A DNA stretch of 64,000 bases, taken from the IMG/VR virus record IMGVR_UViG_3300042554_002438, one strand, 5' to 3'. The position numbers and the translations under genes are program-made. Positions 4,698-43,593 of the stretch are shown here, piece by piece. The notes beneath the pieces were generated by a model. It saw nothing but the letters and a program-made list of their open reading frames with translations. It was not told where the DNA came from and made no database searches. This DNA comes from a virus (taxonomy: Duplodnaviria; Heunggongvirae; Uroviricota; Caudoviricetes). Position 1 is the stretch's first letter; every line of letters begins with the position of its first letter.

Positions 4698-4738
4698 GGT
4701 CACAAATATAAAGAAATATTTTTAAATATCCAAATCTT
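4698..4738 (-). promoter_or_regulatory. promoter-like motif copy
   Basis: ggtcacaaatataaagaaatatttttaaatatccaaat immediately upstream of the 4684 start. Confidence 0.35.
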
Positions 4739-6468: not shown

Positions 6469-7920
6469 TTAAATTTTAATCTTTATGTTTTCGATAATTA
6501 AATCACCAGTGTGAATACCGTTATGTTTATAAATTTCAACATGGTATCTGTTAGATGAGTTGACCTCAAATTCAAATTGCATTGTTGGTCTACCGTCAGC
6601 GTTGAGTGTTCTACAACAACCCTTTTCACAAGACTCACCAGGCATTTTATGATCGGCTCCGAAGAAAGACATATAACCCGCGAAGCTCTCAACCATATTC
6701 GGGTGTGCTGTTGTTAATTTATTTCGATTAACGTAAACCTCATAGACACCTTTAGGTATCTTCGTGAATGAAACGGTTAATACTAATTTAACTCTATTTG
6801 GCGCACCTAGCTGGCCACTTGTTGGCGTAACCTGTGTGACAGCATCTGTGATTTGACCATTAATTGGTATGCTGAAATTATTGCTATGTAAAACATTGTT
6901 GTATGCTCTAGCCATCATCGGTTGATCAGCTTTTTCATATACCTCAACATCATCATAATCATAATCAAGTTTGTATATTATCTTTATCACATCTTCCATT
7001 GTATAGGTAACTTTCTTACCATTCTCATCGAAGAAAACATAAGACCAGTCAGCTGATTTTAACATCTCCAATGTAACTTTCTCCCCATTCGGAGAATTAG
7101 TCCATTGCTGCCATAGTCTATCAATGTTTGAGTGATGTGTCCAGAAAACTGGATCAAACCCAGCTGTCGGAACCCAACCCATCAACCCTGTCTCACTAAT
7201 TTTACCAGTGATTGGGTTGTTGAACAACTTACCAGTTTGTACATTACCAGCGCCGATGTAATCGTGCATCGCACCATGTGGGGCATTGTTAATCTGCGAG
7301 TTAAACATTTCGTATGAGGTGTAACTCATTAATTTATCTGTCTCCAAAGCTCTTTGGATTTCACCTGCAATAGGATAACCATAGTTCAAGCTATCAAATC
7401 TACAACGTTCATATAGGGATGATTTCGGATCTCTGAATTTTTCTTGTAAAAATTTGTCGTAGTCAAAATTATTTGTGTAGCCCCAATAAGGTAATGCGAA
7501 ATCTTTATATCCAGACAATTTTCTAACTATCTTTTCTAAATGGTGAATGTATAATCTATGCCAAACCAAGAAATGAATTTTTTCTTTACCACTTGGTGTA
7601 TGTGTACAATTATCCCAAGCTTCTTTTAAATCGGCTGGGGTCTTATAGCTTGGGCACAGTGGGTTATATAAGATTGTGTCGGGAACCCAATGAATTGCAC
7701 CTTGATAATACCAACTCAATGGGTTATCACAAGGCATATTACGCATAATTTTAAAGGCTTTGTCCATGGCTTCAACGTCCATTTGTGCCTCTGGTGTGTG
7801 AATTTCTTTTCGGAGATATCGTTTTCCAACAACATCTCCAACGCTTTCGGTTCTGTCTTTACATGATATTAGCCATAATAGGCCAAACATCAAAATGAAT
7901 AGTATTAATATTTTTTTCAT
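6469..7920 (-). CDS. tyrosinase (type-3 copper oxidase), secreted/lipoprotein
   Basis: CuA signature HFLVWHRLYIHHLE and CuB signature DPVFWTHHSNIDRLW; N-terminal signal peptide ending LISC. Confidence 0.75.
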   Translation of the reverse strand: MKKILILFILMFGLLWLISCKDRTESVGDVVGKRYLRKEIHTPEAQMDVEAMDKAFKIMRNMPCDNPLSWYYQGAIHWVPDTILYNPLCPSYKTPADLKEAWDNCTHTPSGKEKIHFLVWHRLYIHHLEKIVRKLSGYKDFALPYWGYTNNFDYDKFLQEKFRDPKSSLYERCRFDSLNYGYPIAGEIQRALETDKLMSYTSYEMFNSQINNAPHGAMHDYIGAGNVQTGKLFNNPITGKISETGLMGWVPTAGFDPVFWTHHSNIDRLWQQWTNSPNGEKVTLEMLKSADWSYVFFDENGKKVTYTMEDVIKIIYKLDYDYDDVEVYEKADQPMMARAYNNVLHSNNFSIPINGQITDAVTQVTPTSGQLGAPNRVKLVLTVSFTKIPKGVYEVYVNRNKLTTAHPNMVESFAGYMSFFGADHKMPGESCEKGCCRTLNADGRPTMQFEFEVNSSNRYHVEIYKHNGIHTGDLIIENIKIKI

Positions 7921-7930: not shown

Positions 7931-8131
7931 TTATTTTACAACATTAAGTAAAAAAAGTGTGATGTAAACCATAGATACAACTGTCATAAATTTAATTGTC
8001 ATGGCGATGATGGGTTTAGTACCGTTAACTTTAGCAACAAGCATGAAGGATCCTGTTGCATAGAACCAAATGATGGTTATGATCTTAGCAATGTCTAATA
8101 TGTTCATAGTTTTAATTTTTAAATAAATCAC
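7931..8131 (-). CDS. small membrane protein
   Basis: 66 aa with two hydrophobic segments. Confidence 0.35.
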   Translation of the reverse strand: MIYLKIKTMNILDIAKIITIIWFYATGSFMLVAKVNGTKPIIAMTIKFMTVVSMVYITLFLLNVVK

Positions 8132-8723
8132 TCAGGTATTGAAACATTTCAAAGTAAGGTTCGGTGGCATACCAAGTAAACCCCAACTTAGTCATGAATT
8201 CCTCATTTTCTTTTTTATACATCTCAAACATACGACTACCAGTCATCTTAGAGTATTGTACATTAGCGATACGATCACATAATTTAACAAATACAGCGCC
8301 TTTGGTATTACGAATACCCTCATAGTATTTGTCATTGGCACGTTCCTTACGGTTCTTACCCTTTTCATTGGTTACAGCATAAATAATCTCAGCCGCTTCC
8401 TGACCCAAAATATCTTTAACATCGTTATATGACACACGACAATCTTCGATCAAATCGTGGCCCCAACAAGCAAGCATACATGCGTGTTTAGTCGAAACCT
8501 GTGTGGTTGGATTAACAACCACATCACCAGTAAAGTATTCTTTATCGTCTAAAAGATGGTTGTACTTCTCACCGACATGGGCCACCATTCTCAAGTGGAA
8601 CTCATACGGTAAGTATGTGTCGTACATGTGGTTTGTTTCATTGTGCTTCTCAATGCACCATTTTTTCTTATCCATAATTTCTCTTGTTGTTACAAAGGTA
8701 AGAAAGAAAAATTTAATAACCAA
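8112..8723 (-). CDS. HD-domain phosphohydrolase
   Basis: H...GHDLIED metal-binding motif of HD hydrolases. Confidence 0.55.
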   Translation of the reverse strand: MVIKFFFLTFVTTREIMDKKKWCIEKHNETNHMYDTYLPYEFHLRMVAHVGEKYNHLLDDKEYFTGDVVVNPTTQVSTKHACMLACWGHDLIEDCRVSYNDVKDILGQEAAEIIYAVTNEKGKNRKERANDKYYEGIRNTKGAVFVKLCDRIANVQYSKMTGSRMFEMYKKENEEFMTKLGFTWYATEPYFEMFQYLSDLFKN

Positions 8724-8726
8724 AAA

Positions 8727-8752
8727 AAGGGGATAATTATTTCTAATTACCC
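8727..8752 (-). terminator. rho-independent terminator (minus strand)
   Basis: ggggataattatttctaattacccc hairpin preceded by an A-run on plus (T-run on minus). Confidence 0.4.
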
Positions 8753-8774
8753 CCCAGCACTTGACATGGCATGC

Positions 8775-9131
8775 TTAAGATTTTTTGTAATAGATCGTAT
8801 CAGGTAAAGACCCAAACACGAACTTGGTTACGTCACATAACCACATTTTAATATCAAATGGTATACCCATGTAAGACTCAACCTTATATGTGGCACCAGA
8901 ACCATTCCCCTCATCATACAACCAACCATCCGAAATTTTTTTGAGCTCCTCAGCACCCTCAAATGGTTTATCGGACAATGCTATCCAAATATACCACTCA
9001 CCTTCACATAGCAAATCAAGCCAGGTGTCAGCACCAAGAACCATTTGTAGATCGGCTTTAGATCCTTCCCATTCTGGAAGATCAACAAACCAACCATTAA
9101 ATTCTTTATCAAATCTTAATCTTTGTTTCAT
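8775..9131 (-). CDS. hypothetical protein
   Basis: 118 aa ORF. Confidence 0.45.
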   Translation of the reverse strand: MKQRLRFDKEFNGWFVDLPEWEGSKADLQMVLGADTWLDLLCEGEWYIWIALSDKPFEGAEELKKISDGWLYDEGNGSGATYKVESYMGIPFDIKMWLCDVTKFVFGSLPDTIYYKKS

Positions 9132-9514
9132 AAACTACATTTAAACATATAGTTAAATATCTCACAATTTGAATTTAGTTTAGATAAATCTGGAAAGGTC
9201 ACATCACCTATATAGTTATTATCTATATGTGATATGTGTAACTCGGTGAACATGTGTGCATATTTTTCATATGTTTTTTTGCCACCAATGCACCAATCAA
9301 TAACTTCGATATCTGGATTCCAAAGTCCCCTGGTATCGATTACAACTTCACGACCCTTCAATGGTGGTAACTCTAGTGATGTGTTGTAGCCAACGAGTAA
9401 TCTACCACCCATGGTTTTTTCTTTGAAATGTTTGAAATCTTCGGAACTACGCCATAGCATTTTATTACCGATTCCTATGAACCCGAGATTATTTACAGCA
9501 ATTATAGCTTTCAT
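9128..9514 (-). CDS. dihydrofolate reductase
   Basis: IIAVNNLGFIGIGNKMLWRSSEDFKHFKEKTMGGRLLVGYNTSLELPPLKGREVV aligns to the DHFR N-terminal consensus (E. coli FolA, T4 Frd). Confidence 0.7.
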   Translation of the reverse strand: MKAIIAVNNLGFIGIGNKMLWRSSEDFKHFKEKTMGGRLLVGYNTSLELPPLKGREVVIDTRGLWNPDIEVIDWCIGGKKTYEKYAHMFTELHISHIDNNYIGDVTFPDLSKLNSNCEIFNYMFKCSL

Positions 9515-10081: not shown

Positions 10082-10298
10082 CTTCTTTTTTAATATCCTC
10101 TCGAGTTAATTCTTTTTCAGCTTGGTGCATGAAGATAATCTCTTTTGTTTGTTCATCAACTGTGCAAGCGGCAATTGGTTTATCAACTCGGTAATGATAT
10201 TCTTCTCCTAGCATACCAACTTCTCCGTTGACAACTTCAAAGGCATCAAACTCCTCTGGTAGGGTGTTGAGCCACGTTTTTAATTCTCCTAAATTCAT
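10068..10298 (-). CDS. hypothetical protein
   Basis: 76 aa ORF. Confidence 0.4.
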   Translation of the reverse strand: MNLGELKTWLNTLPEEFDAFEVVNGEVGMLGEEYHYRVDKPIAACTVDEQTKEIIFMHQAEKELTREDIKKEDGKD

Positions 10299-11320
10299 AT
10301 ATCGTAAGGTGTTGTACTGAATGTTATCTTCTCGATACTCAAACAGTTTGTGTTTATTATTTTTTCGATAAACATAATAAAATCAGAAACAATATCAAAT
10401 GATTTTATTTGTTTGTTCAGGTATAGGTTGTAAACCCCAATTTCTTGAAGAACATCTGATTTATTGATTATTAAATCAGTCACACCGTTGATGTTAATTG
10501 CTTTGATCATATCGTCCAAGTCCAACCAATCAACTTGCCTCGGTCTACCAGTTGTTGCACCAAACTCATTACCAACTTCTCTTATCTTCACAAACAATGG
10601 GTCTGCACCTTCAAAGTTTTTGGCACCAACATATGTGCGATAAGCTTTTGCAACGCCGTACACTCTGTCAATTTTTTGTGCTGGTATTCCATTAAGGATG
10701 GCCCCACCAATTGTGCAATGTGATGATGTAACATATGGGTAATCACCCCAATCAATATCCAACTCAAAACCCTGAGCCCCTTCGCAAAGTATACTACAAC
10801 CGTCTTGCCCATTAAATAATCCGTATGTATCAACAACCATGTCGGCTAACATAGGAACATCAACAGCTCTAAGACCTTTTCGATAATACTTATCTCGGTA
10901 AGCTGGGCCATTCCCAGTTTTAGTCGTACCGATTTTACTATCCAAACTATCTTCGTGTAGATGTTGCTCGGTGATGATGTGAACACGTTTATCAATCAAT
11001 AAGTTCTCACGAACTTTAAATCCAGCTAATTCGAGTTCATCAATTTCTTGAATAAGTTTGTCTGGGTTGACCACACAACCAAGTCCAATAATTGATTTGA
11101 TTCCATACAATACACCAACTGGTATGAAATGTGTTACATATTTTTCACCATTGTGATATATCGTGTGACCAGCATTACCACCACCATTGTAGCGCATAAC
11201 ATAATCATACTCATCTGGCTTCTTAGCCAGAGCGTGGGCAACCTTGCCCTTTCCAGTGTCACCCGCTTGCAGGTCAACAATTACATCAGCTTTGCGTATC
11301 ATAGTGCGTGGTTTTCCCAA
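10295..11320 (-). CDS. purA: adenylosuccinate synthetase (short form)
   Basis: LQAGDTGKGKVAH P-loop and GGGNAGHT motif, as in PurA. Confidence 0.8.
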   Translation of the reverse strand: MGKPRTMIRKADVIVDLQAGDTGKGKVAHALAKKPDEYDYVMRYNGGGNAGHTIYHNGEKYVTHFIPVGVLYGIKSIIGLGCVVNPDKLIQEIDELELAGFKVRENLLIDKRVHIITEQHLHEDSLDSKIGTTKTGNGPAYRDKYYRKGLRAVDVPMLADMVVDTYGLFNGQDGCSILCEGAQGFELDIDWGDYPYVTSSHCTIGGAILNGIPAQKIDRVYGVAKAYRTYVGAKNFEGADPLFVKIREVGNEFGATTGRPRQVDWLDLDDMIKAININGVTDLIINKSDVLQEIGVYNLYLNKQIKSFDIVSDFIMFIEKIINTNCLSIEKITFSTTPYDI

Positions 11321-11809: not shown

Positions 11810-13672
11810 TTATTTTACCTCGGTTACAGTACCCTGTTCAGATTCTTTTTTCTCTTGGATTTGCTTTAACAATTCCATTCCAAGTAAGCCATTGATTGGG
11901 CTACTATCACCACTACCTGTGATAAGAATCTCAGGGATGATTTTGATACCATTTGTACCAATCATTTCGGTAACTTTAAGTTTACCAAAGTTTTCAACAC
12001 CCATAGCTTTAACTTGCTTTTCGTAAGCCTCAGCAGTTGATTTACCAATCGCGGAAATCTTAGATGCTTCAGCATCACCAGTCAATTTAATCTGCGTAGC
12101 ATCAGCTTCAGCGTTCAATTTCTTAGCTTCAGCTTGAGCGGCAGCTTTTAATTTCAAGGCTTGTGCTTCACCCTCAGATTTCTTAACAGCGGCCTCAGCT
12201 TCACGTTGAGAAATCTCAACCGATTGTTGTGCTGACACCATTTGTCCTTGCATATCGGCAAGTGCTTTAGCCGATTCAAGCGTCTTACGTTTATCTTGAG
12301 CTTTGCGTTGAGTGTCAAATGTTACCTCTTCTTCTTGTGCAATCTTACGGTCAGTAAGAGTTTTCATCAGAGAGTCTGGTGGTGTGATGTCACCAATAAG
12401 CGTATCAACCGCATGCACGTTGTATTCTTCAAGAACCGTGCTGATCTTATCTTTAGCAGCATTCTGTCTTTGTTGACGAGTTGATAAGAACGCAATCACA
12501 TCAGAATCTTGTGCCGAGTTACGGAAATAGTTACCGATGGTTGGTTCAAGAACTTGTGACACAAGGTTCTGCATTGAGCCGAAACGAGCAATTACTTTAG
12601 GCGCTTCGGTTGATGGGATGTGGATAATCTGTGAAACATCCAAATTGAATGGGAAACCGTCTTGTGAACGTACTGTGATGGTACTCAAGTTCTTATCAAG
12701 ATTGTGTGATTCATTACGAGCATTTGCCCAGTTAAGAACCAAGTTTGTTGTTGGTACTATCTCAATCTTCTGTGTATAAGGATTGATTGCGTATTTACCT
12801 GGATCCAATGGGGTTGCCCACACACCTTTCTGACCTTTTTTAACGATGTTACCGTGTTTAAAATCACTTCCAGTGGTGTCTTCACCATCTTCACCAACAT
12901 AAGAGATAACAACACCAACATGACCGATAGGAATGGATGTCATTTCTTTCTTCTCAACTTCGATTGCCCATGGGTTCAATGAATAAGAACCAGCTTGAAT
13001 AACTTGGATTTGTAAACCCCTTTGTCCACCATTAGCCAAAAACTTATCAAAGTCTTGGAAATTATTGTGACCGCTAACCACAGAACCAGCGATTGAACCA
13101 ATCTCAAGTGGTGTACCATCAAGTGCTGTAACAACGCCAACCATACCATCTTCAATGTATGTGATGTCAGCGAGGAATATCTCGAATAAATGGGTATTAA
13201 CACGATACACACCGTTGTTTAAATAACCAACTTGTTTACCACGTTGTCCACCTGTTGATAAAAACGCTCTAGCATCTTGGTAATCATCACAATCAACGTG
13301 TCGAGCCAAGATAGCACCCTTTGGTAACTGTGCGCCATCTTTAGCTGATAACAAGCCGATCTTACCTTTAGGTATTGTTGTTAAAGGGGCTTGTTCGATT
13401 TCGAATTGCCATATCCAGTAAGCCCAATATAAACCTGGGGCTAATGTGTCGGCCTGAAAGCCTGGTTCATTGTTTAAGGCGATAATCTTACCATCGGGTA
13501 ATTGTTTATTGGGGCCAAAAAGTACAAATTTTTTGGTCACCAAACCAATTTTGTCTTCAGGTATGATAACCATACCAAAGAACACTCGTAGTACGAACTT
13601 GTAGAATACTACCATGAGGATCGGGATTAAAACCCATGCGTAACCCAATACGCTAGTTAATTGTTCTGTCAT
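11810..13672 (-). CDS. SPFH/band-7 (flotillin-like) membrane protein
   Basis: N-terminal TM helix, SPFH core and a long Ala/Lys/Glu-rich coiled-coil C-terminus, as in flotillins. Confidence 0.7.
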   Translation of the reverse strand: MTEQLTSVLGYAWVLIPILMVVFYKFVLRVFFGMVIIPEDKIGLVTKKFVLFGPNKQLPDGKIIALNNEPGFQADTLAPGLYWAYWIWQFEIEQAPLTTIPKGKIGLLSAKDGAQLPKGAILARHVDCDDYQDARAFLSTGGQRGKQVGYLNNGVYRVNTHLFEIFLADITYIEDGMVGVVTALDGTPLEIGSIAGSVVSGHNNFQDFDKFLANGGQRGLQIQVIQAGSYSLNPWAIEVEKKEMTSIPIGHVGVVISYVGEDGEDTTGSDFKHGNIVKKGQKGVWATPLDPGKYAINPYTQKIEIVPTTNLVLNWANARNESHNLDKNLSTITVRSQDGFPFNLDVSQIIHIPSTEAPKVIARFGSMQNLVSQVLEPTIGNYFRNSAQDSDVIAFLSTRQQRQNAAKDKISTVLEEYNVHAVDTLIGDITPPDSLMKTLTDRKIAQEEEVTFDTQRKAQDKRKTLESAKALADMQGQMVSAQQSVEISQREAEAAVKKSEGEAQALKLKAAAQAEAKKLNAEADATQIKLTGDAEASKISAIGKSTAEAYEKQVKAMGVENFGKLKVTEMIGTNGIKIIPEILITGSGDSSPINGLLGMELLKQIQEKKESEQGTVTEVK

Positions 13673-13690: not shown

Positions 13691-13730
13691 GTTGTACAAA
13701 GGTAAGTTAAAATTTTTAAATCACCAAATT
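13691..13730 (-). promoter_or_regulatory. promoter-like motif copy
   Basis: gttgtacaaaggtaagttaaaatttttaaatcaccaaatt just upstream of the flotillin start; near-identical to the copy at 16538. Confidence 0.45.
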
Positions 13731-13997: not shown

Positions 13998-15527
13998 TTA
14001 TAATTTATTTAAACGTTCACGAATTTCAGTTAATGTTGTTTGGTTGTGGAACTTACCATCTTCATAAATGGTTTGTAAGATTCCAGTTCCCTCTTGCTCC
14101 CAAGTACATTGAGTTAATACCTCATGGTCTTCAGTTACACAGATCAAACCTTTCAAAGATTTCTTGGTACCATCATCAGTTACTGGATCTTTGTAGATGT
14201 TGTAACCAACCTTTCCTTTTGGAATTAAAGCACTTCCCAAAAGTCCATCGGCTGAAGGTATAGTATCAAACTCCTCAACTTCAAACCAAGCACCTTTGGC
14301 TGCGAAACCTAAAGTGTCACGGGTATTCATTTGGTAAGTAAATGAACCAACACCCAATACAATGTTTGTTGCCGCAAATCCTTTTGCTTCCAATCTCTTG
14401 TAGATTTCAATTTGACGGTCTAATGTGATTGAATCTCCGTAGATTGCTCCGATGTGTGGGTCAAGAACCTTGTAACCTTGTTCATTGATTGTTCCACCAA
14501 AGATGTCCCAAAGTAATTCTATTACCCCGACTTCAGCAGGTGTTTTATACTCACCAGGCGCATCGGATAATTGTTCTTCTCTACCACAAATAATATCAAC
14601 TGGATCACCAGAGTCAGGACGAATTACTAACTTACCGTCACGAGCCATGATAGCTTCTTTGTTTGCTGGTAAGTATTCAGTAATCAACTTCCACAAATCA
14701 AATGTGTCAGATACAATTGATAGGATTCCATTCGGAAAATCTACCAACCAATCGGCAATCATTTGTTGTTCACCAACAGTAAAGATTTTTGTTGTTGATA
14801 CAGAGTGTTCAGATGCGTTAACCGAGTTAATGCACACTTCGTCTTTTGGTTCATTATAGAAATAACGAGCCCCTGGAATACAGATGATTGTATCTGAACC
14901 ACGGAACGATGTTGCATGTCCCATTCCACTAGTCAACATATCCCATGGTGATAAACCACGTGCTGAAAAGTCATGACACATAAAAGGAATTAACCAAGCT
15001 GTTGATGGGTCGGTTTTCATAACCCACTCAACAACATTACGTTTGTATTGCAATGCTATTGTTGCTGATGTGGATGGTTTCCAAGCCAACGAACTGATAA
15101 TTGTTTCCAAATACAATGTCAACCACGCAAACCCATCGACAGTATTGATGAAAGTCATGTGTGGAACATTTGGGTTTGTTTCAATACCTTCAGGTAGTGC
15201 TTTAACACGAATAGGTAAGTAACCTAATCTGTGTAGTGCAACGAAGTGTGATGCATCGTAATCCATTCCAAGATACAATGACATATCTTTTCCAAAGTTA
15301 ACCGCAACTTCCTCGGGTAAACTGAAAAAGTTCTCTTGAAATTCATCATGTAACCATTTAACAACCAATTGTTGTCCGAATGAAACGATTTTTGACACGC
15401 CTTTAGGTGCATACTTAACACTACGTGGAATCCATGTGCCGTACAAACGGGTGGTTCCAGGAGCTAACATTTTCTTGTGACCGATCTTATATCCGTCAGT
15501 GTAAAATAAACTTGTTGGTTTGAACAT
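13998..15527 (-). CDS. nadV: nicotinamide phosphoribosyltransferase (NAMPT/NadV)
   Basis: 509 aa; typical NAMPT start MFKPTSLFYTDGYKIGHKKM and family-wide similarity. Confidence 0.85.
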   Translation of the reverse strand: MFKPTSLFYTDGYKIGHKKMLAPGTTRLYGTWIPRSVKYAPKGVSKIVSFGQQLVVKWLHDEFQENFFSLPEEVAVNFGKDMSLYLGMDYDASHFVALHRLGYLPIRVKALPEGIETNPNVPHMTFINTVDGFAWLTLYLETIISSLAWKPSTSATIALQYKRNVVEWVMKTDPSTAWLIPFMCHDFSARGLSPWDMLTSGMGHATSFRGSDTIICIPGARYFYNEPKDEVCINSVNASEHSVSTTKIFTVGEQQMIADWLVDFPNGILSIVSDTFDLWKLITEYLPANKEAIMARDGKLVIRPDSGDPVDIICGREEQLSDAPGEYKTPAEVGVIELLWDIFGGTINEQGYKVLDPHIGAIYGDSITLDRQIEIYKRLEAKGFAATNIVLGVGSFTYQMNTRDTLGFAAKGAWFEVEEFDTIPSADGLLGSALIPKGKVGYNIYKDPVTDDGTKKSLKGLICVTEDHEVLTQCTWEQEGTGILQTIYEDGKFHNQTTLTEIRERLNKL

Positions 15528-15546
15528 AATAATTATTATTTTGGGG

Positions 15547-16518
15547 TTAAAATACGTTTAATTGTTTAACTAATGAGTGAATTGTTTTGTGCCTTGAAAG
15601 CGTGTCAACGATAGTTCCGTCTTGAACATCCTTCACACTATTTGTTGTGTAGATACCATCAAAATATTCACTTAGGAAATCAAACCCAGCGCTGAAGATG
15701 CCATGAGTAACTATCAAATAGTTTTTACCGTGGTGTTTTGGGTGAACAGTACTTGATATTTTTCTGGCATCATTGACAGCTTTAGCGATTTCAATGAATG
15801 TTCTACCACCATCGCAGATGTCATCAATAATGAAAATATCTTTGTCGGCATCGTTTACTGAAATTGGTACGTTAGTGTAATCAATCTTACCAGTTTCAAT
15901 ATTACGATGTTTTGATGCGATGATAACTTCATGTCTATATTTGAGTTGTTCAGCACAATGAAACACTTTTTTCAAAGCACCAGCATCGGGTGATACTAAA
16001 CGTACACCATCGAAATTCATGGAGTCCCAAATTTCAAATCCTTTTGATAAAAAGTAATCTTTAAATGCGAAATAAAGTAAAACGGTATTGTCCCGTTTCT
16101 CAAAGTTATTGATGCATGCCTCAAGAACATCTGAGTGTGGGTCAAGGACTGTTACCTTTTCGTAACCCTGTGAGTTAATGATTGGTGCGATTACGTTCTT
16201 AACATAATTGATACCACCTTCCGTAAACTTACGGTCGCTTCTAGCACCCATACAATAAGGAATGTAAAGACGAATACGATTAACACCAACCTCTTTTAAC
16301 GCTTGTGTTGCACAGATAATAATTTCCAAATCCTGGAATGTATTTAAACGAGATTTGATTGTTATACCTTGCGAATTATCTTTAAGTGAACAAAAGGTAT
16401 TGTATCCATTTTCAACCAATCTCAATGATTGTTGTCCATCGGGAAAACGACTAATCTCATATTTGAATGATAGCTTATCGTTATCGTTATGGTTAACTAA
16501 ATTTAAAAGTTCCGCCAT
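15547..16518 (-). CDS. prs: ribose-phosphate pyrophosphokinase (PRPP synthetase)
   Basis: 323 aa with PRPP-binding motifs (DDICDGGRT, DAGALKK). Confidence 0.8.
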   Translation of the reverse strand: MAELLNLVNHNDNDKLSFKYEISRFPDGQQSLRLVENGYNTFCSLKDNSQGITIKSRLNTFQDLEIIICATQALKEVGVNRIRLYIPYCMGARSDRKFTEGGINYVKNVIAPIINSQGYEKVTVLDPHSDVLEACINNFEKRDNTVLLYFAFKDYFLSKGFEIWDSMNFDGVRLVSPDAGALKKVFHCAEQLKYRHEVIIASKHRNIETGKIDYTNVPISVNDADKDIFIIDDICDGGRTFIEIAKAVNDARKISSTVHPKHHGKNYLIVTHGIFSAGFDFLSEYFDGIYTTNSVKDVQDGTIVDTLSRHKTIHSLVKQLNVF

Positions 16519-16537: not shown

Positions 16538-16578
16538 GTTGTACAAAGATAAGTTAAAATTTTTAAACCACCAAATTA
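16538..16578 (-). promoter_or_regulatory. promoter-like motif copy
   Basis: tgttgtacaaagataagttaaaatttttaaaccaccaaatt upstream of the prs start. Confidence 0.45.
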
Positions 16579-17760: not shown

Positions 17761-17775
17761 ATTATTTTCTATTAG

Positions 17776-17849
17776 TGGGCCCTGCTGGGTTCGAACCAGC
17801 GACCACCTGATTATGAGTCAGACGCTCTAACCGACTGAGCTAAGGGCCC
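17776..17849 (-). tRNA. tRNA-Met (anticodon CAT)
   Basis: hand-folded cloverleaf: GGGCCCT acceptor, GCTC/GAGC D-stem, CTCATAA anticodon loop, TTCGAAC T-loop; no encoded CCA. Confidence 0.8.
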
Positions 17850-17879: not shown

Positions 17880-18383
17880 TTATTTTCCAAATCCAGTATC
17901 GGTAAAAAATCTGAGCGTCTCGGCCATAAATGTATTTGTATCAAAATTTGGGTCGAATGTTAAATTATCATCCACAATAATATTATCATCCTCATCAACT
18001 TTATATTGGTACATTTCAAAACTGTTTGGGGTAGTTTTTATAGGATCAACTTTAATAATATCACCCTCAAATTGAACCCCACATAGTTCACAAAAATGTA
18101 CAACTTTATAACTATTCGTATCAGGCATTGGGATTAGAATGTCTTTATGTGTTAAACTCATCGCCTTTGAACCATCTTCATTTGTGTGATTGCAACTCAA
18201 TTTTATCTCATAAATTTGTTTTTCATACGAAGTTATGTGATTATTTTTCGATTCGATTAAAATATCAACTTTTTTCTTGAGCTCTCGTTCAATGGAGTTT
18301 AGATCTCGAGTAACCTTTTCTTTATTAATCTCAAGTTCGATTATTTTTTTACGGCCCTCTATAAACGGATTCTTTGATTCCAT
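17880..18383 (-). CDS. hypothetical protein
   Basis: 167 aa with a possible C-x-x-C zinc ribbon. Confidence 0.45.
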   Translation of the reverse strand: MESKNPFIEGRKKIIELEINKEKVTRDLNSIERELKKKVDILIESKNNHITSYEKQIYEIKLSCNHTNEDGSKAMSLTHKDILIPMPDTNSYKVVHFCELCGVQFEGDIIKVDPIKTTPNSFEMYQYKVDEDDNIIVDDNLTFDPNFDTNTFMAETLRFFTDTGFGK

Positions 18384-18388
18384 AAAGA

Positions 18389-18823
18389 TTAACCATTTGT
18401 ATTTTTTAATTCTAATTCATAATATTTTACCATCAGAGATGCGCTGGCATAATTGGTGGCAAGTGGTATGTTATGTACATTACATATCCTCAAAAGCATG
18501 CTCACATCCACCTGATGTGGGTGGGCTTCAAGTGGGTCGATGAAAAAAACAACACCGTCAATTTTACCGTTAACAATCATAGATGCTATCTCCGCATCAC
18601 CACCGTAAGGCCCAGAGTTTAACTTGGTTACATTCGTCAAACCAGCGTGTTCAACGTGTTTACCTGTGGTTCCAGTAGCATATATGTTTACGTTGTTTTT
18701 AAAGAAATCGAGACGTTTCATAATGAATGAGACCATATCCGCTTTCTTACCATCATGTGCGATAATAGCAACATTAAGTTTTTTCCGATTCTCTTTGTCA
18801 GCTAAAAATTTATTCAACAACAT
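18389..18823 (-). CDS. mgsA: methylglyoxal synthase
   Basis: IAIIAHDGKK...YATGTTG...GPYGGDAEIASMIVNGKIDGVVFFIDPLEAHPHQVDV...NIPLATN aligns along its length to E. coli MgsA. Confidence 0.8.
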   Translation of the reverse strand: MLLNKFLADKENRKKLNVAIIAHDGKKADMVSFIMKRLDFFKNNVNIYATGTTGKHVEHAGLTNVTKLNSGPYGGDAEIASMIVNGKIDGVVFFIDPLEAHPHQVDVSMLLRICNVHNIPLATNYASASLMVKYYELELKNTNG

Positions 18824-18825
18824 AA

Positions 18826-19347
18826 TTAAAATTTAATTCTAAGACCCATTTTTTGCATAGCCAATAATGCCTCGGCGTTACCCATAGCATCATCAACGGG
18901 ATTGTGAGTATGTTTTGTTTTTCTATACAAACGTTTCCACTCCTGGTTCTTACTAGCATCCTTAACCAAACCACAATACAAATCACCGATACGTCTGCCA
19001 GAAAACCCGAATGGGTTTCTACCGCAGTACTTATGCATGTACCAGTTAATCCACTGCCAATCAAAGGCTAAGTTATCGCTGATAAAGGTTGGTTTACCTT
19101 CGGAATTTTTAACTAACCATTTTTCGAACTCGCTCATAACCTCATATGGTTCCCCAAACTGTTCATGCTCAGACCTTGAAAACCCACTGACAGCTAACGC
19201 ATCTGGTTTGTATTGATCAGTTAATGGTCTGATCTTACCATAAAACGTTTTTGATGTGTCGGACACTTTAACAACACCGAAACATACAATTGAATGTGTA
19301 CCAACTAATTCACCATCAGCCTCAACATCCACTACAAAATAACTCAT
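18826..19347 (-). CDS. DEDDh 3'-5' exonuclease (DnaQ-like)
   Basis: VVDVEADGE Exo I motif and HNPVDDAMGNAE Exo III motif. Confidence 0.55.
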   Translation of the reverse strand: MSYFVVDVEADGELVGTHSIVCFGVVKVSDTSKTFYGKIRPLTDQYKPDALAVSGFSRSEHEQFGEPYEVMSEFEKWLVKNSEGKPTFISDNLAFDWQWINWYMHKYCGRNPFGFSGRRIGDLYCGLVKDASKNQEWKRLYRKTKHTHNPVDDAMGNAEALLAMQKMGLRIKF

Positions 19348-27513: not shown

Positions 27514-27811
27514 ATGTCAACCATGGTTTTTTTTGTTGGGTGTTTAGTGCCTCAACTATCTTATTATAATTTTCTTCATAAAATCTTTCACCGTCTTCCG
27601 AATTTGCCCAAAATAGAAATCCTGGTTCAGTCTGCGTCCTCCCCAGGATTTCTTTTGTTGCTCTTCTATCTTTTTTAAGAAATGAAATACTAACATAGTT
27701 CAGTATAAACTTCCCATCAGTCTTTGACCAATACGCCAGTTGGCCAAATTTTTGTTTGTTCTTTACTCTGGCATTTTCAATAATCTCTATTAAAAATTTA
27801 ACATTTCCCAT
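27473..27811 (-). CDS. hypothetical protein
   Basis: 112 aa ORF. Confidence 0.4.
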   Translation of the reverse strand: MGNVKFLIEIIENARVKNKQKFGQLAYWSKTDGKFILNYVSISFLKKDRRATKEILGRTQTEPGFLFWANSEDGERFYEENYNKIVEALNTQQKKPWLTYEYEIKKPEQKEE

Positions 27812-29193
27812 TAACTAGATTCTTCCATATCAACCACACCCGAGTCTTTAACTATACCCTCAAGAACCTTAAACTCAAAAGATTTGTGTTTGTAAATTCT
27901 AGGTACCAGACCAGATTCTAATCTGACACATACACCCTCACGGATATGGGTATCATCGAGCATTGATTTACCTTTAGAATAAATATCAACAAGTTCAGTA
28001 ATCTTGTCATTAAAATCCCTATCACCGTTTATACTTGGATAGGTTAATTCCATTTCAATTCTTCTGAAACGTGTTATCTCTGGAACATGTTTTACACCTA
28101 TCTCATTACATCTTTTAACAACATCATCCCAAGTGTAATCAACTGATTGGCCATCTGGGTTGGTCATTGTCATACGGTACACATAAAAGTCTTGTTGGGC
28201 TGTCGAACAACCATATGAGTAAACCATGTGCTTTTTATCGCCCATGTTGGAATACTGTTTCGTGAATTCCTTATCACCCATTTTACTTGTATCAACAGAT
28301 GGCATGATTGGCGTATTCTCATTCTCATAACCAACAATCTCAAGATAAACAGTCTCACCTTTTCTTAGATTACCTTTGAAAAGAGCGAAAGCTTTATCTC
28401 TTATGGTTGGATCATGGAATTGGGTTGCATTTGATTTAGCCTCCTCCAAAACAACTCTGCGTGTACCAGTTAAATAAGCCCATTCAGTCTCGTTTATCTT
28501 GATACCAAGCTTAATCAATAATCTTTCAAACCAATTTAAATCACGGTCAACCAACACATGCCCAACTCTATGAGAAGTTCCGTGTAGTTTTTCTGTGATG
28601 ACAACCAAATCCTCACGATTTATTTGATGTACATTCTTACCAAAATGTTCGGTATCAATATGTTCCTTGAACATAACCGAAGTTTTTGCCACTCTGGTTT
28701 TTTTACCTTGGTTTTGTTGAGCGGCTTTTATTGTGTTCGGGTTGATGTACTTATTACAAATTGGTACACCACCCCATTCATCAATCTCAAGACCCTCATC
28801 AACCAGACCAGTCACATAAATGAAACCAAAACTGTGTAATGGTGTCCAGAAACCATCTGAGATTTCCCCACGAAATCTCTGGGCCCTAACCCTACGGTTA
28901 TCATCAAACATACCAGCTTTATCATCTGGGAATTTGTTCTTTGTTTTATCTCGATATAAGTTATTCGCATGGCAAAACTCATGAGATAACTGACCATCAC
29001 ATGGGAAGTATACCCCCCAATGATCTTCTTTGCAATCTAAACCAACCACCACTTGATTACCGTGGCATGTCGCTAATTGCACCTTATCCGCATTAGGATG
29101 CGGTCTAACGTTTTTAAGTTTTGTTACTATTCCTTTATACATATTTTTTACTTTGATTCTACCATTACGTAAGTACCCTCTACCATACCCCAT
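27811..29193 (-). CDS. ATP-dependent RNA ligase (Rnl2/Rnl5-like) with an N-terminal OB/tRNA-binding-like domain
   Basis: nucleotidyltransferase motif I ITEKLHGTSHRV (KxHGxx, as in T4 Rnl2 EKIHGTN); N-terminal ...RPHPNADKVQLATC... resembles tRNA-binding OB folds. Confidence 0.6.
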   Translation of the reverse strand: MGYGRGYLRNGRIKVKNMYKGIVTKLKNVRPHPNADKVQLATCHGNQVVVGLDCKEDHWGVYFPCDGQLSHEFCHANNLYRDKTKNKFPDDKAGMFDDNRRVRAQRFRGEISDGFWTPLHSFGFIYVTGLVDEGLEIDEWGGVPICNKYINPNTIKAAQQNQGKKTRVAKTSVMFKEHIDTEHFGKNVHQINREDLVVITEKLHGTSHRVGHVLVDRDLNWFERLLIKLGIKINETEWAYLTGTRRVVLEEAKSNATQFHDPTIRDKAFALFKGNLRKGETVYLEIVGYENENTPIMPSVDTSKMGDKEFTKQYSNMGDKKHMVYSYGCSTAQQDFYVYRMTMTNPDGQSVDYTWDDVVKRCNEIGVKHVPEITRFRRIEMELTYPSINGDRDFNDKITELVDIYSKGKSMLDDTHIREGVCVRLESGLVPRIYKHKSFEFKVLEGIVKDSGVVDMEESS

Positions 29194-35948: not shown

Positions 35949-35989
35949 AACAAAGATACGCAAATATTTTTAATTCGCAAATTTTTTTG
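35949..35989 (-). promoter_or_regulatory. promoter-like motif copy
   Basis: caacaaagatacgcaaatatttttaattcgcaaattttttt, 12 nt upstream of the ATG at 35936. Confidence 0.45.
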
Positions 35990-38521: not shown

Positions 38522-40606
38522 ATGGCACAAAAAGTATCATATACAGGGGTTTTCTTGGACAAGGATTCAAGAGCCGTATTAGAAAAAGAGTTCAAATCGC
38601 AGGTTCCTGATGGATGGGAGTGGATTGCGCATCATATGACCATAACTTTAGGGGAAATGGTTGATAAATCGGAATTGGGTAAACAAGTTGCCCTTAATAT
38701 AGTTTCATTTGGTAAAGATGATAAAGTCATGGCAATTGGTGTCAAGGGTTACCCTAGTAAAAATGAAAAACCGCACATTACTTTAGCCGTTAATCGCGCT
38801 GAGGGTGGTAAACCTTATATGAGTAATTTAATTAAGGAATGGGTACCATACTCGATCGGTGCCATATTAACTGGTGTTGTCAGTGAATACCCGCCACAAT
38901 CTAAAGAAACACTTAATGAAGCTTATGATATTAAATCATTACCGTTCTATAACGATGTTATCAATAAAAACGGTAAAATATATCAGGTTGGTGGGGCTGT
39001 TAGAGATTTGTATCTGGGTAAACAATCTAAAGACCTTGACATCGTTATTAGTGGAATACCAGCTAAGGAACTCGAAGATGTGTTGAAAAAATATGGTAAA
39101 GTTGATATGGTTGGTGCGTCATTTGGTGTTATTAAGTTCACACCACCAGATGGTGAAGAAATTGATATTGCAATACCAAGAACTGAAAAGAAGAGTGGTG
39201 TTGGTTATCAGGGTTTTGATGTGTCGGCTGATCACACTCTCCCTATCGAAAAGGATCTTGAGAGAAGAGATTTCACAATAAATTCAATCGCTAAAGATAG
39301 TGATGGGAATGTTATTGATCCATTCGGTGGGTTAAAGGATCTTGATTCGAAGGTTATCAAATTAACAAACCCTAAGGCTTTTTCAGATGACCCATTAAGG
39401 ATGTTAAGGGCGATTCAATTTGCGTCTAGGTTTGGTTTTAAAATAGATGAGGAAACGTTTGATGCTATTAAAAAGAATGCGATGACTATTGACGAAATAT
39501 CAAAAGAGAGAATATTGATAGAGTTTGATAAAATCGTAAACAAAGGTAATCCCAGAGTCGGAGCTGAGTTATTAGTTTCAAGTGGATTGTACAGGGGCAT
39601 ATTCGGTACCGAGTTTGATGGTGATTTTGAACCGTTTGACCAAGTAACTAGGAACAGTGAGTTCGCTTACTGGTTGATCCAATCGTTCACCGAACAACCA
39701 GACCAATACTATAAGAATATAATGAAAGGTGACATCGATACGGCTAGAGAGATATCAGCTTTGGCTTATATGTATAACAACTTACCTGGTAACGACAAAG
39801 CAAAACAAAGATTTGTTTATTTTAATATAAATAAGATATCACCACAGATGTTTAATAGTAATTTCGTGAGAAGTATATTGAGTGATGTTATCAATGACTT
39901 TGATTCTCAAAAATACCCAGCTGGTTATTCGGATTTAAAAGTCAATGGTAATGATTTAATGGCAATGGGTTTAAAAGGTAAAGCTGTTGGTGATATGTTA
40001 AATAAATTAATCTCTGCAATATATTCTGATAAAATTGAAAATACAAAGAATGGTTTGTTGGGTTTTGTTGAGAGGAATAAGGATATGTTAAATGAATCTG
40101 TTGGTGGTACAAATAAGAATAGAGTTGTGTTTTATGATTTTGATGGTACTTTAATGGATAGTCCACTTCCTGACACAGGTAAACAAATCTATAAAGAAAA
40201 AACTGGTAATGTATACCCACATCAAGGTTGGTGGGGTCGTGCTGAGAGTTTGGATTTAAATGTCTTCGACATAAAAACAAATCCAGATGTTGAGGCTAAA
40301 TTTAGAGCTGACTCATCGGATCCAAATACGCATGTTGTTTTATTAACCAATAGGTTGTCAAAACTTGAGGAACCAATTAAAAAAGTTCTTGACAAACATA
40401 ATATGGTATTCGATTTTTATTCTTTTAAAAATGATGGTCGTGAAAAGGGTGAACGTGTTTTGGATATTTTAGCCAAAGTATATCCGAATACGAATGAAAT
40501 TGAATTTTATGATGACGATGAGCGACACATTCAAAATGTAAGAGATAATTTAATCGACACCGATTACGATTTCAAGGTGAATCAAGTTATTGATGGTAGA
40601 TTATAA
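38522..40606 (+). CDS. tri-domain RNA end-healing enzyme: 2H phosphoesterase, CCA-adding nucleotidyltransferase (class II) and HAD 3'-phosphatase
   Basis: N-terminal HHMTIT and PHITLA = two H-x-T/S-x motifs of 2H/LigT CPDases; middle GGAVRDLYLG...DLDIV...RRDFTIN...DPFGGLKDL...DPLRMLRAIQFA = CCA-adding/poly(A) polymerase head domain; C-terminal VVFYDFDGTLMD (DxDGT), LLTNR and YDDDERH = HAD phosphatase motifs as in the T4 Pnkp C-domain. Confidence 0.8.
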   Translation: MAQKVSYTGVFLDKDSRAVLEKEFKSQVPDGWEWIAHHMTITLGEMVDKSELGKQVALNIVSFGKDDKVMAIGVKGYPSKNEKPHITLAVNRAEGGKPYMSNLIKEWVPYSIGAILTGVVSEYPPQSKETLNEAYDIKSLPFYNDVINKNGKIYQVGGAVRDLYLGKQSKDLDIVISGIPAKELEDVLKKYGKVDMVGASFGVIKFTPPDGEEIDIAIPRTEKKSGVGYQGFDVSADHTLPIEKDLERRDFTINSIAKDSDGNVIDPFGGLKDLDSKVIKLTNPKAFSDDPLRMLRAIQFASRFGFKIDEETFDAIKKNAMTIDEISKERILIEFDKIVNKGNPRVGAELLVSSGLYRGIFGTEFDGDFEPFDQVTRNSEFAYWLIQSFTEQPDQYYKNIMKGDIDTAREISALAYMYNNLPGNDKAKQRFVYFNINKISPQMFNSNFVRSILSDVINDFDSQKYPAGYSDLKVNGNDLMAMGLKGKAVGDMLNKLISAIYSDKIENTKNGLLGFVERNKDMLNESVGGTNKNRVVFYDFDGTLMDSPLPDTGKQIYKEKTGNVYPHQGWWGRAESLDLNVFDIKTNPDVEAKFRADSSDPNTHVVLLTNRLSKLEEPIKKVLDKHNMVFDFYSFKNDGREKGERVLDILAKVYPNTNEIEFYDDDERHIQNVRDNLIDTDYDFKVNQVIDGRL

Positions 40607-42621: not shown

Positions 42622-42681
42622 ACTTCTTTATTTTATTATAAATAGTATGAGATAAATAAAAGTAATAAAAAATTAGATTTG

Positions 42682-42752
42682 AGCTGGTAGTTGGAATCGA
42701 ACCAATCTCTATAAGTTTTGCAGACTTATTGCACTCCATGTACATTACCAGC
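42682..42752 (-). tRNA. tRNA-Cys (GCA)
   Basis: hand fold: GCTGGTA/TACCAGC acceptor, TAAGT-CTGCAAA-ACTTA anticodon arm, TTCGATT T-loop; short D-loop. Confidence 0.65.
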
Positions 42753-42759
42753 ATATTAG

Positions 42760-42830
42760 CACGGGTGGAAGGATTCGAACCTCCATCGCTGGTTTTGGAG
42801 ACCAGCATTCTACCATTGAAATACACCCGT
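42760..42830 (-). tRNA. tRNA-Trp (CCA)
   Basis: ACGGGTG/CACCCGT acceptor, CTGGT-CTCCAAA-ACCAG anticodon arm. Confidence 0.7.
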
Positions 42831-42837
42831 ATATTGT

Positions 42838-42989
42838 GGACACAGTGGGAATCGAACCCAAACGATCTCCTTGCAAGGGAGTCGACCTGCCTTCGGTATC
42901 TGGCCCATATGGCGGAGAGCGGAGTACTCGAAACTCATACCCGAAAGTACCACTCGCTTAGCAGGCGGTGACAGCACCCTGGCTGTGTC
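42838..42989 (-). ncRNA. atypical 152-nt tRNA-like RNA (acceptor helix and T-arm but a non-canonical core)
   Basis: 3' TGGG-TTCGATT-CCCA T-arm followed by CTGTGTC; the exact complement GACACAG lies 152 nt upstream; an internal ACTCC-CTTGCAA-GGAGA hairpin and GGTACT/AGTACT hairpin; no standard D-arm. Confidence 0.35.
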
Positions 42990-43001
42990 ACTCTCCATTT
43001 G

Positions 43002-43077
43002 TCGGGAAAGCTGGATTCGAACCAGCGATCTCTCGCGTCCAAGGCGAGCGAGGATGACCTGACTCCTCCATTTCCCG
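43002..43077 (-). tRNA. tRNA-Pro (TGG)
   Basis: CGGGAAA/TTTCCCG acceptor, CTCGC-CTTGGAC-GCGAG anticodon arm, GCTGG-TTCGAAT-CCAGC T-arm. Confidence 0.65.
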
Positions 43078-43082
43078 TTTTG

Positions 43083-43155
43083 TAGGGTAGACAGGGTTCG
43101 AACCTGCGACCCCGTGCTCCCAAAGCACGTGCGCTACCAACTGCGCTACTACCCT
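43083..43155 (-). tRNA. tRNA, anticodon TGG (second Pro-like)
   Basis: AGGGTAG/CTACCCT acceptor, GCGC D-stem, CGTGC-TTTGGGA-GCACG anticodon arm. Confidence 0.55.
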
Positions 43156-43162
43156 ATGTTTG

Positions 43163-43248
43163 TCGGAGTGGAGGGATTCGAACCCCCTGAGTTTCCAATG
43201 TGCCAGATTTACAGTCTGGTGCCCATCCGCCGTCTGAGCAGCACTCCG
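43163..43248 (-). tRNA. tRNA-Tyr (GTA), class II
   Basis: CGGAGTG/CACTCCG acceptor, CCAGA-CTGTAAA-TCTGG anticodon arm, 15-nt variable arm (bacterial type). Confidence 0.75.
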
Positions 43249-43261
43249 AAATGATATAAAA

Positions 43262-43288
43262 CAAAAAACCCTGAGATTTTGTCCCAGG
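43262..43288 (-). terminator. rho-independent terminator (minus strand) upstream of the tRNA array
   Basis: A-run then ccctgagattttgtcccaggg hairpin; followed on plus by the conserved GGGCTTCTACTAT. Confidence 0.55.
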
Positions 43289-43460
43289 GCTTCTACTATT
43301 TTATATAATTAGTTTCCAAAAAAAATCGTTAACTAAAAGACAATAGAAGCCCTGTTCCAGCTGGATATGCTGGAGCTGCTGGACAACTATACGGCCATGC
43401 CACGATATTTTTGTTCAAATTTTTCATTTTGTCTTTATAAATAGTGTGTTCTTTTAAAAA

Positions 43461-43505: not shown

Positions 43506-43528
43506 AAAAATTAATCATAAATTTCTGT

Positions 43529-43572: not shown

Positions 43573-43593
43573 CCAGGCGCTTACCACTCACAA

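Follow-up and report, generated by a model that had tools for sequence, protein, structure and literature searches.

A putative phage-borne tyrosinase with an export signal and a predicted latency lid

Why should a bacterial virus carry a tyrosinase, and what kind of tyrosinase would it be? The question is raised by a 64,000-nucleotide stretch of DNA from a virus of the class Caudoviricetes (IMG/VR record IMGVR_UViG_3300042554_002438), which is referred to here in its entirety as the window. Towards one end of the window lies a complete gene for a pre-pro-tyrosinase of 483 amino acids (6469..7920, minus strand), identified from the list of open reading frames (ORFs) and from Pfam, that begins with an ATG and finishes with a stop codon at 6469-6471. 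An original prediction, made from the letters alone, had described the product as a phage-encoded tyrosinase that carries both type-3 copper signatures behind a lipoprotein-type signal peptide. In family membership, copper ligands, lipobox and phage context this prediction is supported, and to it are now added a two-domain latent architecture with a lid and an invariant Phe, a phage-specific clade and a cysteine loop peculiar to that clade. At the level of the enzyme, the sequence makes it probable that this is a phage-borne latent, exported and lid-bearing tyrosinase (polyphenol oxidase, PPO), and that the protein acts as an oxidase. The benefit that it brings to the phage is proposed far more tentatively, and no single biological role is rated as better than possible.

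The enzyme and its two domains

The window protein matches the Pfam Tyrosinase profile (PF00264) with an E-value of 1.5e-26 and 94.5 bits against a cut-off of 22.6 bits, which is the profile search that the original prediction had proposed, and the same profile is matched in 59 of 59 relatives. The two copper signatures that had first drawn attention to the gene are both in place, with HFLVWHRLYIHHLE at residues 116-129 and DPVFWTHHSNIDRLW at residues 256-270. A PPO1_DWL middle domain (PF12142) follows at residues 293-327 (6940..7044, minus strand), where it scores 22.7 bits against a cut-off of 20.8 bits, and is detected in 19 of the 59 relatives. The PPO1_KFDV domain gives no Pfam match in the window protein and is matched in two of the 59 relatives, with precomputed matches present on some bacterial relatives. 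In total, 981 homologues are retrieved at E<=1e-5. The identical protein is found on 20 public contigs, the longest of which spans 298,717 bp and has the same neighbours around the gene, and those database copies that bear any label are named 'hypothetical protein'. The gene is real, functional and under strong purifying selection, with a ratio of nonsynonymous to synonymous substitution rates (dN/dS, or omega) against a 92%-identical variant (L061) of 0.044 for the whole gene, 0.029 for its catalytic part and 0.05 for its C-terminal part. Some database copies are 473 amino acids long and apparently start at Met11, as judged from length alone (7888-7920, minus strand). The 483-residue start is the more plausible of the two, since initiation at Met11 would remove Lys2 and Lys3, which form the n-region of the signal peptide.

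The catalytic type-3 copper domain is helical, spans residues 34-335 (6916..7821, minus strand) and has the four-helix-bundle fold. The closest solved enzyme is HcTyr1 from Hahella sp. CCB MM4 (PDB 8b74), where the copper ions are held by H43, H78, H87, H211, H215 and H238, with Cys76 beside His78, and where Phe397 acts as the placeholder of the lid (PMC11609597). In a HMMER alignment H43, H78 and H87 of HcTyr1 fall on H77, H107 and H121 of the window protein, which together make up a CuA site (residues 77-129; 7534..7692, minus strand) that also includes the conserved residues H116, H127 and E129. Likewise, H211, H215 and H238 fall on H215, H219 and H263 of the CuB site (residues 215-270; 7111..7278, minus strand), which also contains the invariant gate residue V250 and the activity-controller positions G216 and D220. 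The original prediction had named loss of the copper-ligand histidines in a full alignment as the result that would overturn it. Five of the six (H77, H121, H215, H219 and H263) are present in all of the 181 aligned relatives, and H107 is present in 180, the remaining sequence having a glutamine.

Around these ligands the finer detail of the active site is also recognisable. The C105-T-H107 motif is invariant and aligns with C76-x-H78 of HcTyr1, which makes it a candidate Cys-His thioether pair, and in the apo crystal of HcTyr1 the thioether is not seen (PMC11609597). V250 aligns with Val218, the gatekeeper of the Bacillus megaterium tyrosinase (PMC10526336). Relative to HcTyr1, a five-residue insertion is found between the second and third CuA histidines and carries His116 (7573-7575, minus strand), a position that is His in 166 of the 181 sequences and Asn in the remainder.

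The rest of the chain is predicted to form the lid. An AlphaFold (AF2) model built from an 89-sequence alignment has a predicted local distance difference test score (pLDDT) of 87.8 and a predicted template modelling score (pTM) of 0.88, and shows a C-terminal beta-sandwich lid, or shielding domain, at residues 343-483 (6472..6894, minus strand), which is packed against the catalytic domain. Foldseek aligns the whole chain of this model to latent enzymes, namely Hahella 8b74, tomato PPO, latent aurone synthase, latent apple tyrosinase and Ralstonia TYR, and the family profile extends into the C-terminal domains of 6hqi, 6els, 4z11 and 8b74. Hence, from the whole-chain structural match, the profile alignment into known lids and the occurrence of PPO1_KFDV in some of the bacterial relatives, the C-terminal domain is a homologue of the lid that shields the pro-tyrosinases. 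Phe420 (6661..6663, minus strand) aligns with Phe397 of HcTyr1 and is the predicted active-site placeholder, or plug. The motif that surrounds it, F413-x-G415-x-M417-x-F419-F420-G421, is invariant, with position 420 being Phe in 181 of 181 relatives and in 94 of 100 scorable family representatives. The two domains are joined by a linker (residues 328-342) that is variable among relatives and is modelled with lower confidence. In HcTyr1, which oxidises L-Tyr, L-DOPA and lignin phenolics, loss of the lid brings about a gain in activity of approximately 10-fold (PMC11609597).

At the other end of the protein, residues 1-19 are recognised by rule as a Sec/signal peptidase II lipoprotein signal peptide followed by a lipid-attachment cysteine, Cys20 (7861..7920, minus strand), with L17-I18-S19-C20 as the lipobox. 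The rule applied is of the PROSITE PS51257 type and asks for a positive n-region, a hydrophobic h-region and the motif [LVI][ASTVI][GAS]C with its cysteine at positions 15-35. The N-terminus, MKKILILFILMFGLLWLISC, satisfies this through the match LMFGLLWLISC, with Cys20, an n-region containing K2 and K3 and an uncharged h-region, and the lipoprotein-type signal ending in LISC that had been claimed for the protein is thus borne out. No twin-arginine motif is found in the N-terminus of the window protein (MKKILILF...). In the AF2 model residues 2-20 form a helix, after which residues 23-30 form a disordered tether. Across the phage-specific clade to which the protein belongs (see below), a lipobox is present in 53 of 132 proteins and a hydrophobic N-terminal anchor lacking the cysteine in a further 62, such that 115 have one or the other; among the bacterial clade a lipobox occurs in 37 of 49 proteins and either feature in 42. 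As approximately half of the phage clade has an anchor and no lipobox, the common feature is tethering outside the cytoplasm and not lipidation as such.

Among known systems, HcTyr1 is a two-domain, lid-bearing enzyme as well, but it comes from a gammaproteobacterium and not from a phage or a member of the Bacteroidota, its alignment with the window protein starts at residue 16 and the paper that describes it mentions no signal peptide, whereas the window protein has a lipoprotein signal. The uncharacterised 'tyrosinase family proteins' of the Bacteroidota, with an identity of 45-50% along the full length, are alike in domains, lipobox-type N-terminus, copper ligands, C105, V250 and F420. The plant PPOs and aurone synthase (6hqj, 6els, 4z11-4z14) together with vsTyr, the pre-pro-tyrosinase of V. 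spinosum (8bbq), match the full-length fold including the shielding domain and share with the window protein a Cys adjoining a CuA histidine and PPO1_DWL, although the identity is only 18-31%. The lid of vsTyr carries a gatekeeping Phe453, and the enzyme is exported folded via the twin-arginine translocation (Tat) system (PMC10526336). Unlike the plant enzymes, which are plastid-targeted, and the Tat-exported vsTyr, the window protein has a Sec/signal peptidase II signal that is devoid of twin arginines. Streptomyces MelC2 has the same dicopper core but no lid, and needs a separate caddie protein, MelC1, in order to be loaded with copper and exported via Tat; nothing that resembles a caddie gene adjoins the window tyrosinase. 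Three narrower assignments are rejected: membership of MelC2 (NCBIfam NF047834; 36.4 bits against a cut-off of 450), membership of BagH/FevF (NCBIfam; 23.3 bits against a cut-off of 630) and identity as a mollusc haemocyanin, the window protein being a single unit of 483 amino acids as opposed to the seven or eight functional units found per polypeptide.

The phage clade and its cysteine loop

A neighbour-joining tree of the family roots within bacterial sequences and gathers 132 sequences, including the window protein and every IMG/VR copy, into one nested clade, which is recovered in 169 of 200 bootstraps (84.5%) with the diagnostic loop columns excluded. All members of this clade for which the surroundings were examined lie in phage-like or IMG/VR viral DNA. 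The closest homologues are 50-69% identical and sit on contigs of 80-347 kb, with phage-like neighbours such as thymidylate synthase, GIY-YIG, deoxynucleoside monophosphate kinase, S-adenosylmethionine synthetase, HNH, ClpP, UvdE and methylases, alongside many short ORFs that have no Pfam match. Approximately 18 full-length copies are present in IMG/VR itself, where the viral contigs that carry them reach 476 kb. In named bacterial genomes the homologues are 34-49% identical and are found in Mucilaginibacter, Flavobacterium, Pseudarcicella, Chitinophagaceae and Emticicia (the last on a 5.18-Mb contig), so that the nearest cellular homologues of the window tyrosinase are all from the Bacteroidota. 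These bacterial enzymes form separate branches outside the 132-sequence clade and have ordinary chromosomal contexts; the neighbours of the Mucilaginibacter homologue, for instance, are unrelated housekeeping or signalling genes. The window protein therefore belongs to a phage-specific clade nested within the Bacteroidota lipoprotein tyrosinases, which are the evident source of the phage gene. Its phage context, its cellular homologues in the Bacteroidota and its purifying selection mark the gene as a host-derived auxiliary gene.

The feature that sets the phage enzymes apart is the loop that follows the plug. In the window protein this loop comprises residues 421-437, GADHKMPGESCEKGCCR (6610..6660, minus strand), contains the cysteine cluster C431-x3-C435-C436 and is a candidate copper-loading loop; it is modelled with a pLDDT of about 55, falling below 50 at residues 426-434. 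The cysteines are present in 128-129 of the 132 phage-clade members and in none of the 49 bacterial-clade members, where the loops are instead His-rich or His/Met-rich, as in GHHMKGMANMPG and DHHSGMEDMKMDGMP, and the cluster is absent. HcTyr1 has neither arrangement, its post-plug stretch being FGLEN. An exhaustive search of 1.84 billion cluster representatives, in which the family amounts to 655 clusters at E<=1e-30, also finds the cysteine cluster confined to the phage clade, which in this census collapses to two full-length representatives plus fragments. A pattern-based scan of genome contigs found only 10 bacterial loci, and the absence of the cysteine loop from bacterial genomes is supported, not proven.

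A parallel for the cluster is provided by the fungal enzymes. In abPPO4 (4oua) the placeholder Phe454 is followed by a disordered loop with a CXXC motif at 462-465, a 'copper grappler' described as responsible for copper incorporation (PMC4157443), and both abPPO4 and Aspergillus oryzae MelB (3w6q) have a placeholder Phe and then a long disordered CXXC loop where the phage clade has F420 and then C-x3-C-C. By analogy, the phage cluster resembles the fungal copper-loading loop, and its layout matches that of abPPO4. The phage Cys cluster and the bacterial His/Met-rich loop hence offer a natural comparison for how exported tyrosinases are loaded with copper.

The earliest-branching viral group, which has 88% bootstrap support, bears on how the loop arose. 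It includes a copy on a 28-kb IMG/VR contig (L039; 2968-4332, plus strand) that has a His/Met-rich loop, ATHHAGHSDMSNMPGMK, and no Cys cluster, and that looks transitional between the two loop types; its flanks are phage-like, with five of the six flanking ORFs having no Pfam match. The presence of such a copy in this group suggests that the gene was captured once from a Bacteroidota host and that its loop was replaced afterwards. The G+C content (GC) of the tyrosinase gene and its G+C content at third codon positions (GC3) match those of the neighbouring genes, from which it follows that the acquisition is old. Tyrosinase-like genes are also present in eukaryotic giant viruses, where distant tyrosinase-domain genes on IMG/VR GVMAG contigs (L042-L056) are approximately 25% identical over residues 117-289, and these are unrelated to the phage clade.

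Tyrosinases rank among the copper enzymes that have been studied best, and neither this class nor the lid mechanism is new, while a phage-borne tyrosinase appears to be new within the databases and literature searched. A tblastn search of the window tyrosinase against 50,697 deposited phage genomes (INPHARED) gives no match. The same query against plasmids picks up distant rhizobial tyrosinases at 27-32% identity, and since the method is able to detect such remote relatives the negative result with phages is meaningful. No PHROGs family matches the window tyrosinase, the viral structures in BFVD give only weak partial beta-sandwich matches (TMq <=0.18) and no comparable fold, and the literature searched contains no paper on a phage tyrosinase, the lone co-occurrence of the terms (PMC12147045) being on an unrelated topic. 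The clade constitutes a lineage of latent tyrosinases that is specific to phages, is of the Sec/lipoprotein type and carries the Cys loop. That it is conserved under purifying selection, with the members examined lying on many large phage contigs (approximately 80-476 kb), implies a real benefit during infection.

Proposed mechanism and possible roles

A working scheme for the enzyme can be put forward from its sequence features. The gene would be transcribed from a host-type Bacteroidota promoter and the protein exported unfolded through Sec, the absence of a twin-arginine motif arguing for Sec and against Tat. Export through Sec would mean that folding and copper uptake take place outside the cytoplasm. 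Signal peptidase II is expected to cleave the precursor, after which Cys20 would be lipidated and the flexible linker would tether the enzyme in the envelope. Loading with copper is probably aided by the flexible C431-x3-C435-C436 loop, in the same place as the His/Met-rich loop of the bacterial enzymes. Latency would then be imposed by the lid, through a Phe420 that covers the dicopper site, until the lid is displaced or is cut in the 328-342 linker, whereupon O2-dependent oxidation of catechols, and possibly of monophenols, to o-quinones could proceed in the envelope. The pay-off is the least certain step, and is envisaged as that of an auxiliary gene that oxidises phenolics in the periplasm or at the surface of the infected cell. 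Such a scheme would add envelope phenol/quinone oxidation to the possible effects of phages on their hosts. The protein is also a compact, self-contained and lid-regulated tyrosinase scaffold, and as such may interest biotechnology.

Several observations weigh against a latent, lipid-anchored tyrosinase of phage origin. The residue after the first CuB histidine is Gly216, where several true tyrosinases have Asn (PMC10526336); this leaves monophenolase activity in doubt and may mean that the enzyme works chiefly as a catechol oxidase. That F420 lies above the two coppers is predicted from the alignment to HcTyr1 and from the confident two-domain model. Lipidation is not a conserved feature, with about half of the phage clade having no lipobox and an uncleaved anchor in its stead. 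In an oxidising periplasm all three cysteines of the loop might form disulfides and play a purely structural part. Across 24 loci no conserved caddie, copper chaperone or pathway neighbour is found in phages or in bacteria, and with no linked neighbour conserved the genomes give no hint of a substrate or a role. Finally, no capsid or terminase gene is seen in the annotated part of the window, so that its assignment to a phage rests on gene content, and an exact 40-mer of the tyrosinase gene has no match in IMG/VR.

The roles that the original prediction suggested, namely the modification of tyrosines on surface or virion proteins, the detoxification of phenolics and the cross-linking of the envelope, are speculative. 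For the role of the enzyme, two readings are weighted roughly equally and each is held as a possibility short of likely. The first is the detoxification or turnover of exogenous phenolics, whether of plant, lignin, humic or antimicrobial origin, by which the phage would continue the work of a host lipoprotein tyrosinase during host shut-down. The nearest cellular homologues are indeed lipoprotein tyrosinases of Mucilaginibacter, Flavobacterium, Emticicia and Chitinophagaceae, soil and freshwater taxa linked to plant litter. Moreover, the gene stands alone in bacteria and phages, as would be expected for exogenous substrates, and HcTyr1 oxidises lignin-related phenolics and has been discussed in connection with wetland phenolic turnover (PMC11609597). 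However, the gene has no linked partner for detoxification such as a transporter or a quinone reductase, a latent and plugged enzyme would be odd for constitutive detoxification, and the periplasm would be exposed to o-quinones, which are reactive and toxic in their own right.

In the second reading the activated, tethered enzyme would tan or melanise the envelope by converting tyrosine, DOPA or protein tyrosines into quinones and cross-links. Such a coat might shield the cell from ultraviolet (UV) light, oxidants or grazers during the long cycle of a jumbo phage, or block receptors against superinfection. A membrane tether, be it lipobox or anchor, is found in every lineage with a classifiable N-terminus, which fits action on the envelope, and latency through a plug fits an activity that has to be timed and is potentially self-damaging. 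UV protection by melanin is the role usually given to bacterial tyrosinases (PMC11609597), and the gene is kept across a broad phage radiation under strong purifying selection. Against this, no tyrosine-rich substrate protein is encoded adjoining the tyrosinase and the host-type promoter suggests early or middle expression.

A bolder form of the tanning proposal is that Bacteroidota jumbo phages use a timed, self-plugged and tethered tyrosinase for envelope tanning, in which the C-x3-C-C loop loads its own copper without host chaperones. Taken as a whole this is doubtful, and is put forward as speculation. Were it to hold, no oxidative system for the cross-linking of proteins or phenols would have been described from a bacterial virus before it.

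The description as an oxidase itself has to be weighed against that of a permanently lidded copper- or O2-binding protein, comparable to a single mollusc haemocyanin unit, that serves in copper sequestration or O2 binding. In a sequence search of the PDB the best scores go to mollusc haemocyanin functional units, which consist of a catalytic-like domain and a plugged beta-sandwich, although these scores are inflated by the summing of repeated units. Also in favour of this alternative, the Phe of the plug does not vary, selection constrains the lid as strongly as the catalytic domain (omega 0.05) and metal-binding residues are plentiful in the loop. The structural ranking places tyrosinases and PPOs above haemocyanins, and a non-enzymatic function of this kind is regarded as improbable.

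More improbable still is that the gene is not phage-borne at all and that the window represents a bacterial chromosome, a plasmid or a mis-binned contig with an ordinary Bacteroidota gene. The missing capsid, portal and terminase genes in the annotated part of the window would be in keeping with this, as would the lack of an IMG/VR match to the 40-mer and the bacterial origin of the nearest named homologues. Yet the window has 27 tRNA genes in arrays, nearly all of its genes on one strand, an endolysin, a NAMPT/phosphoribosyl pyrophosphate (PRPP) synthetase pair, an RNA ligase and phage-only PHROGs, and its only DNA match is to a Tenacibaculum jumbo phage. Relatives of the tyrosinase are carried by viral contigs in IMG/VR that measure as much as 476 kb, six independently sampled contexts are phage-like, and the named bacterial genomes carry only the clade with the His/Met loop; plasmid matches are at most 32% identical. 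The claim that the gene is phage-encoded accordingly stands, on the strength of the 27 tRNAs, the PHROG matches and the identical protein on the 298,717-bp contig. The equally remote idea of a dedicated tailoring oxidase from a small-molecule pathway, either an o-aminophenol oxidase of the GriF/NspF/BagH type or a PvdP-like enzyme, can be set aside as the scores are far under the family cut-offs (23.3 against 630, and for MelC2 36.4 against 450), biosynthetic genes are unlinked in all loci examined and export to the envelope is unfit for a cytoplasmic pathway.

The surrounding phage genome

The tyrosinase appears to be part of a short transcription unit. A Bacteroidota-type promoter (TTTG-N-TAnnTTTG) is located at 8693..8724 on the minus strand, directly downstream of a terminator-like hairpin and T-run (8728..8755, minus strand) with which the preceding unit ends. 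The inferred unit opens with the gene for an HD-domain metal-dependent phosphohydrolase of 187 amino acids (8112..8675, minus strand; phrog_990 with E=2.2e-25 and a weak Pfam HD_4 match). It is followed, directly upstream of the tyrosinase, by a gene for a 58-residue predicted two-helix membrane protein with no Pfam match (7931..8107, minus strand), which is called in L057-L060, is not conserved beside the tyrosinase in other phages and is probably co-transcribed with it. As the promoter comes straight after a terminator and the gaps between genes are only 4-10 nt, the phosphohydrolase, the 58-residue protein, the tyrosinase and the small ORFs downstream are taken as one unit, which the promoter at 8693..8724 probably drives. 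A sigma-70 promoter scan around the tyrosinase gene returns 21 sites against 21.3 expected by chance, and it is the Bacteroidota consensus that proves informative.

Promoters of the Bacteroidota type are enriched in the window as a whole. The consensus TTTG-N17-23-TAnnTTTG occurs 18 times against 5.2 expected, a number that is reached in none of 100 shuffles, and 16 of the 18 matches are on the coding strand; those that were checked against the list of ORFs lie a short way ahead of genes. Examples are found at 4703-4734, 8693-8724, 13697-13728, 16544-16575 and 35951-35981, all on the minus strand. An extended form, TTTGCGAATTAAAAA...TTAyCTTTG, is common to the sites, which closely precede genes and tRNA arrays, and the set is likely to be read by the RNA polymerase of the host. 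The related phage contig L062 encodes, at 18154-19161 (plus strand) and approximately 7 kb from a tyrosinase of the Cys-loop clade, a 335-residue protein with a MopE-type copper-binding motif, a PKD domain and a type IX secretion system (T9SS) C-terminal sorting domain, a possible case of a secreted protein by which a phage binds copper. A T9SS tail of this kind is peculiar to the Bacteroidota. Together, the promoters, the Bacteroidota homologues of the tyrosinase and the T9SS-domain protein on a related phage contig indicate a Bacteroidota host, and the host of the phage is probably a member of this phylum.

Almost all of the ORFs in the window lie on one strand, and many of them are short and family-less. 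The 27 tRNA genes are found at 17775-17849 and at 42681-60404, and are accompanied by a CCA-adding enzyme (38522-40606, plus strand), a tRNA-His guanylyltransferase (43683-44525) and an RNA ligase (27811-29193), which with the arrays make up a large tRNA supply and repair module. The genes for NAMPT and ribose-phosphate pyrophosphokinase adjoin each other (13998-16518, minus strand) as an NAD+ salvage pair, and it is NAMPT that gives the only nucleotide match among deposited phages, with 75% DNA identity to the Tenacibaculum jumbo phages PTm1 and PTm5. Further PHROG and Pfam matches are to an endolysin with a peptidoglycan-binding and a glycoside hydrolase family 19 (GH19) domain, a PurA/PurZ-like synthetase, dihydrofolate reductase (DHFR) and phage-only families. 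Such a repertoire is typical of the accessory region of a jumbo phage, here one of roughly 299 kb.

Among these, the adenylosuccinate synthetase homologue (10295-11320, minus strand) is matched by phrog_1211 with E=2.9e-69 and, on the same gene in L057, by Pfam Adenylsucc_synt; the family includes PurZ of phages that have 2-aminoadenine genomes. The DHFR gene lies near to it at 9128-9514. A protein of 620 amino acids (11810-13672, minus strand) combines an SPFH/Band 7 domain with a match to phrog_200, a family annotated 'lipoprotein', and it too is a candidate for a phage protein of the envelope or a membrane. A low-GC island extends from approximately 46000 to 52300, with 28-30% GC and a GC3 of 0.17-0.20 against approximately 0.31-0.33 in most of the other long genes checked. 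It contains a Nol-type carbamoyltransferase (46428-48080) and a C-methyltransferase (51041-52264), and may be a more recently acquired cluster for the modification of sugars or small molecules.

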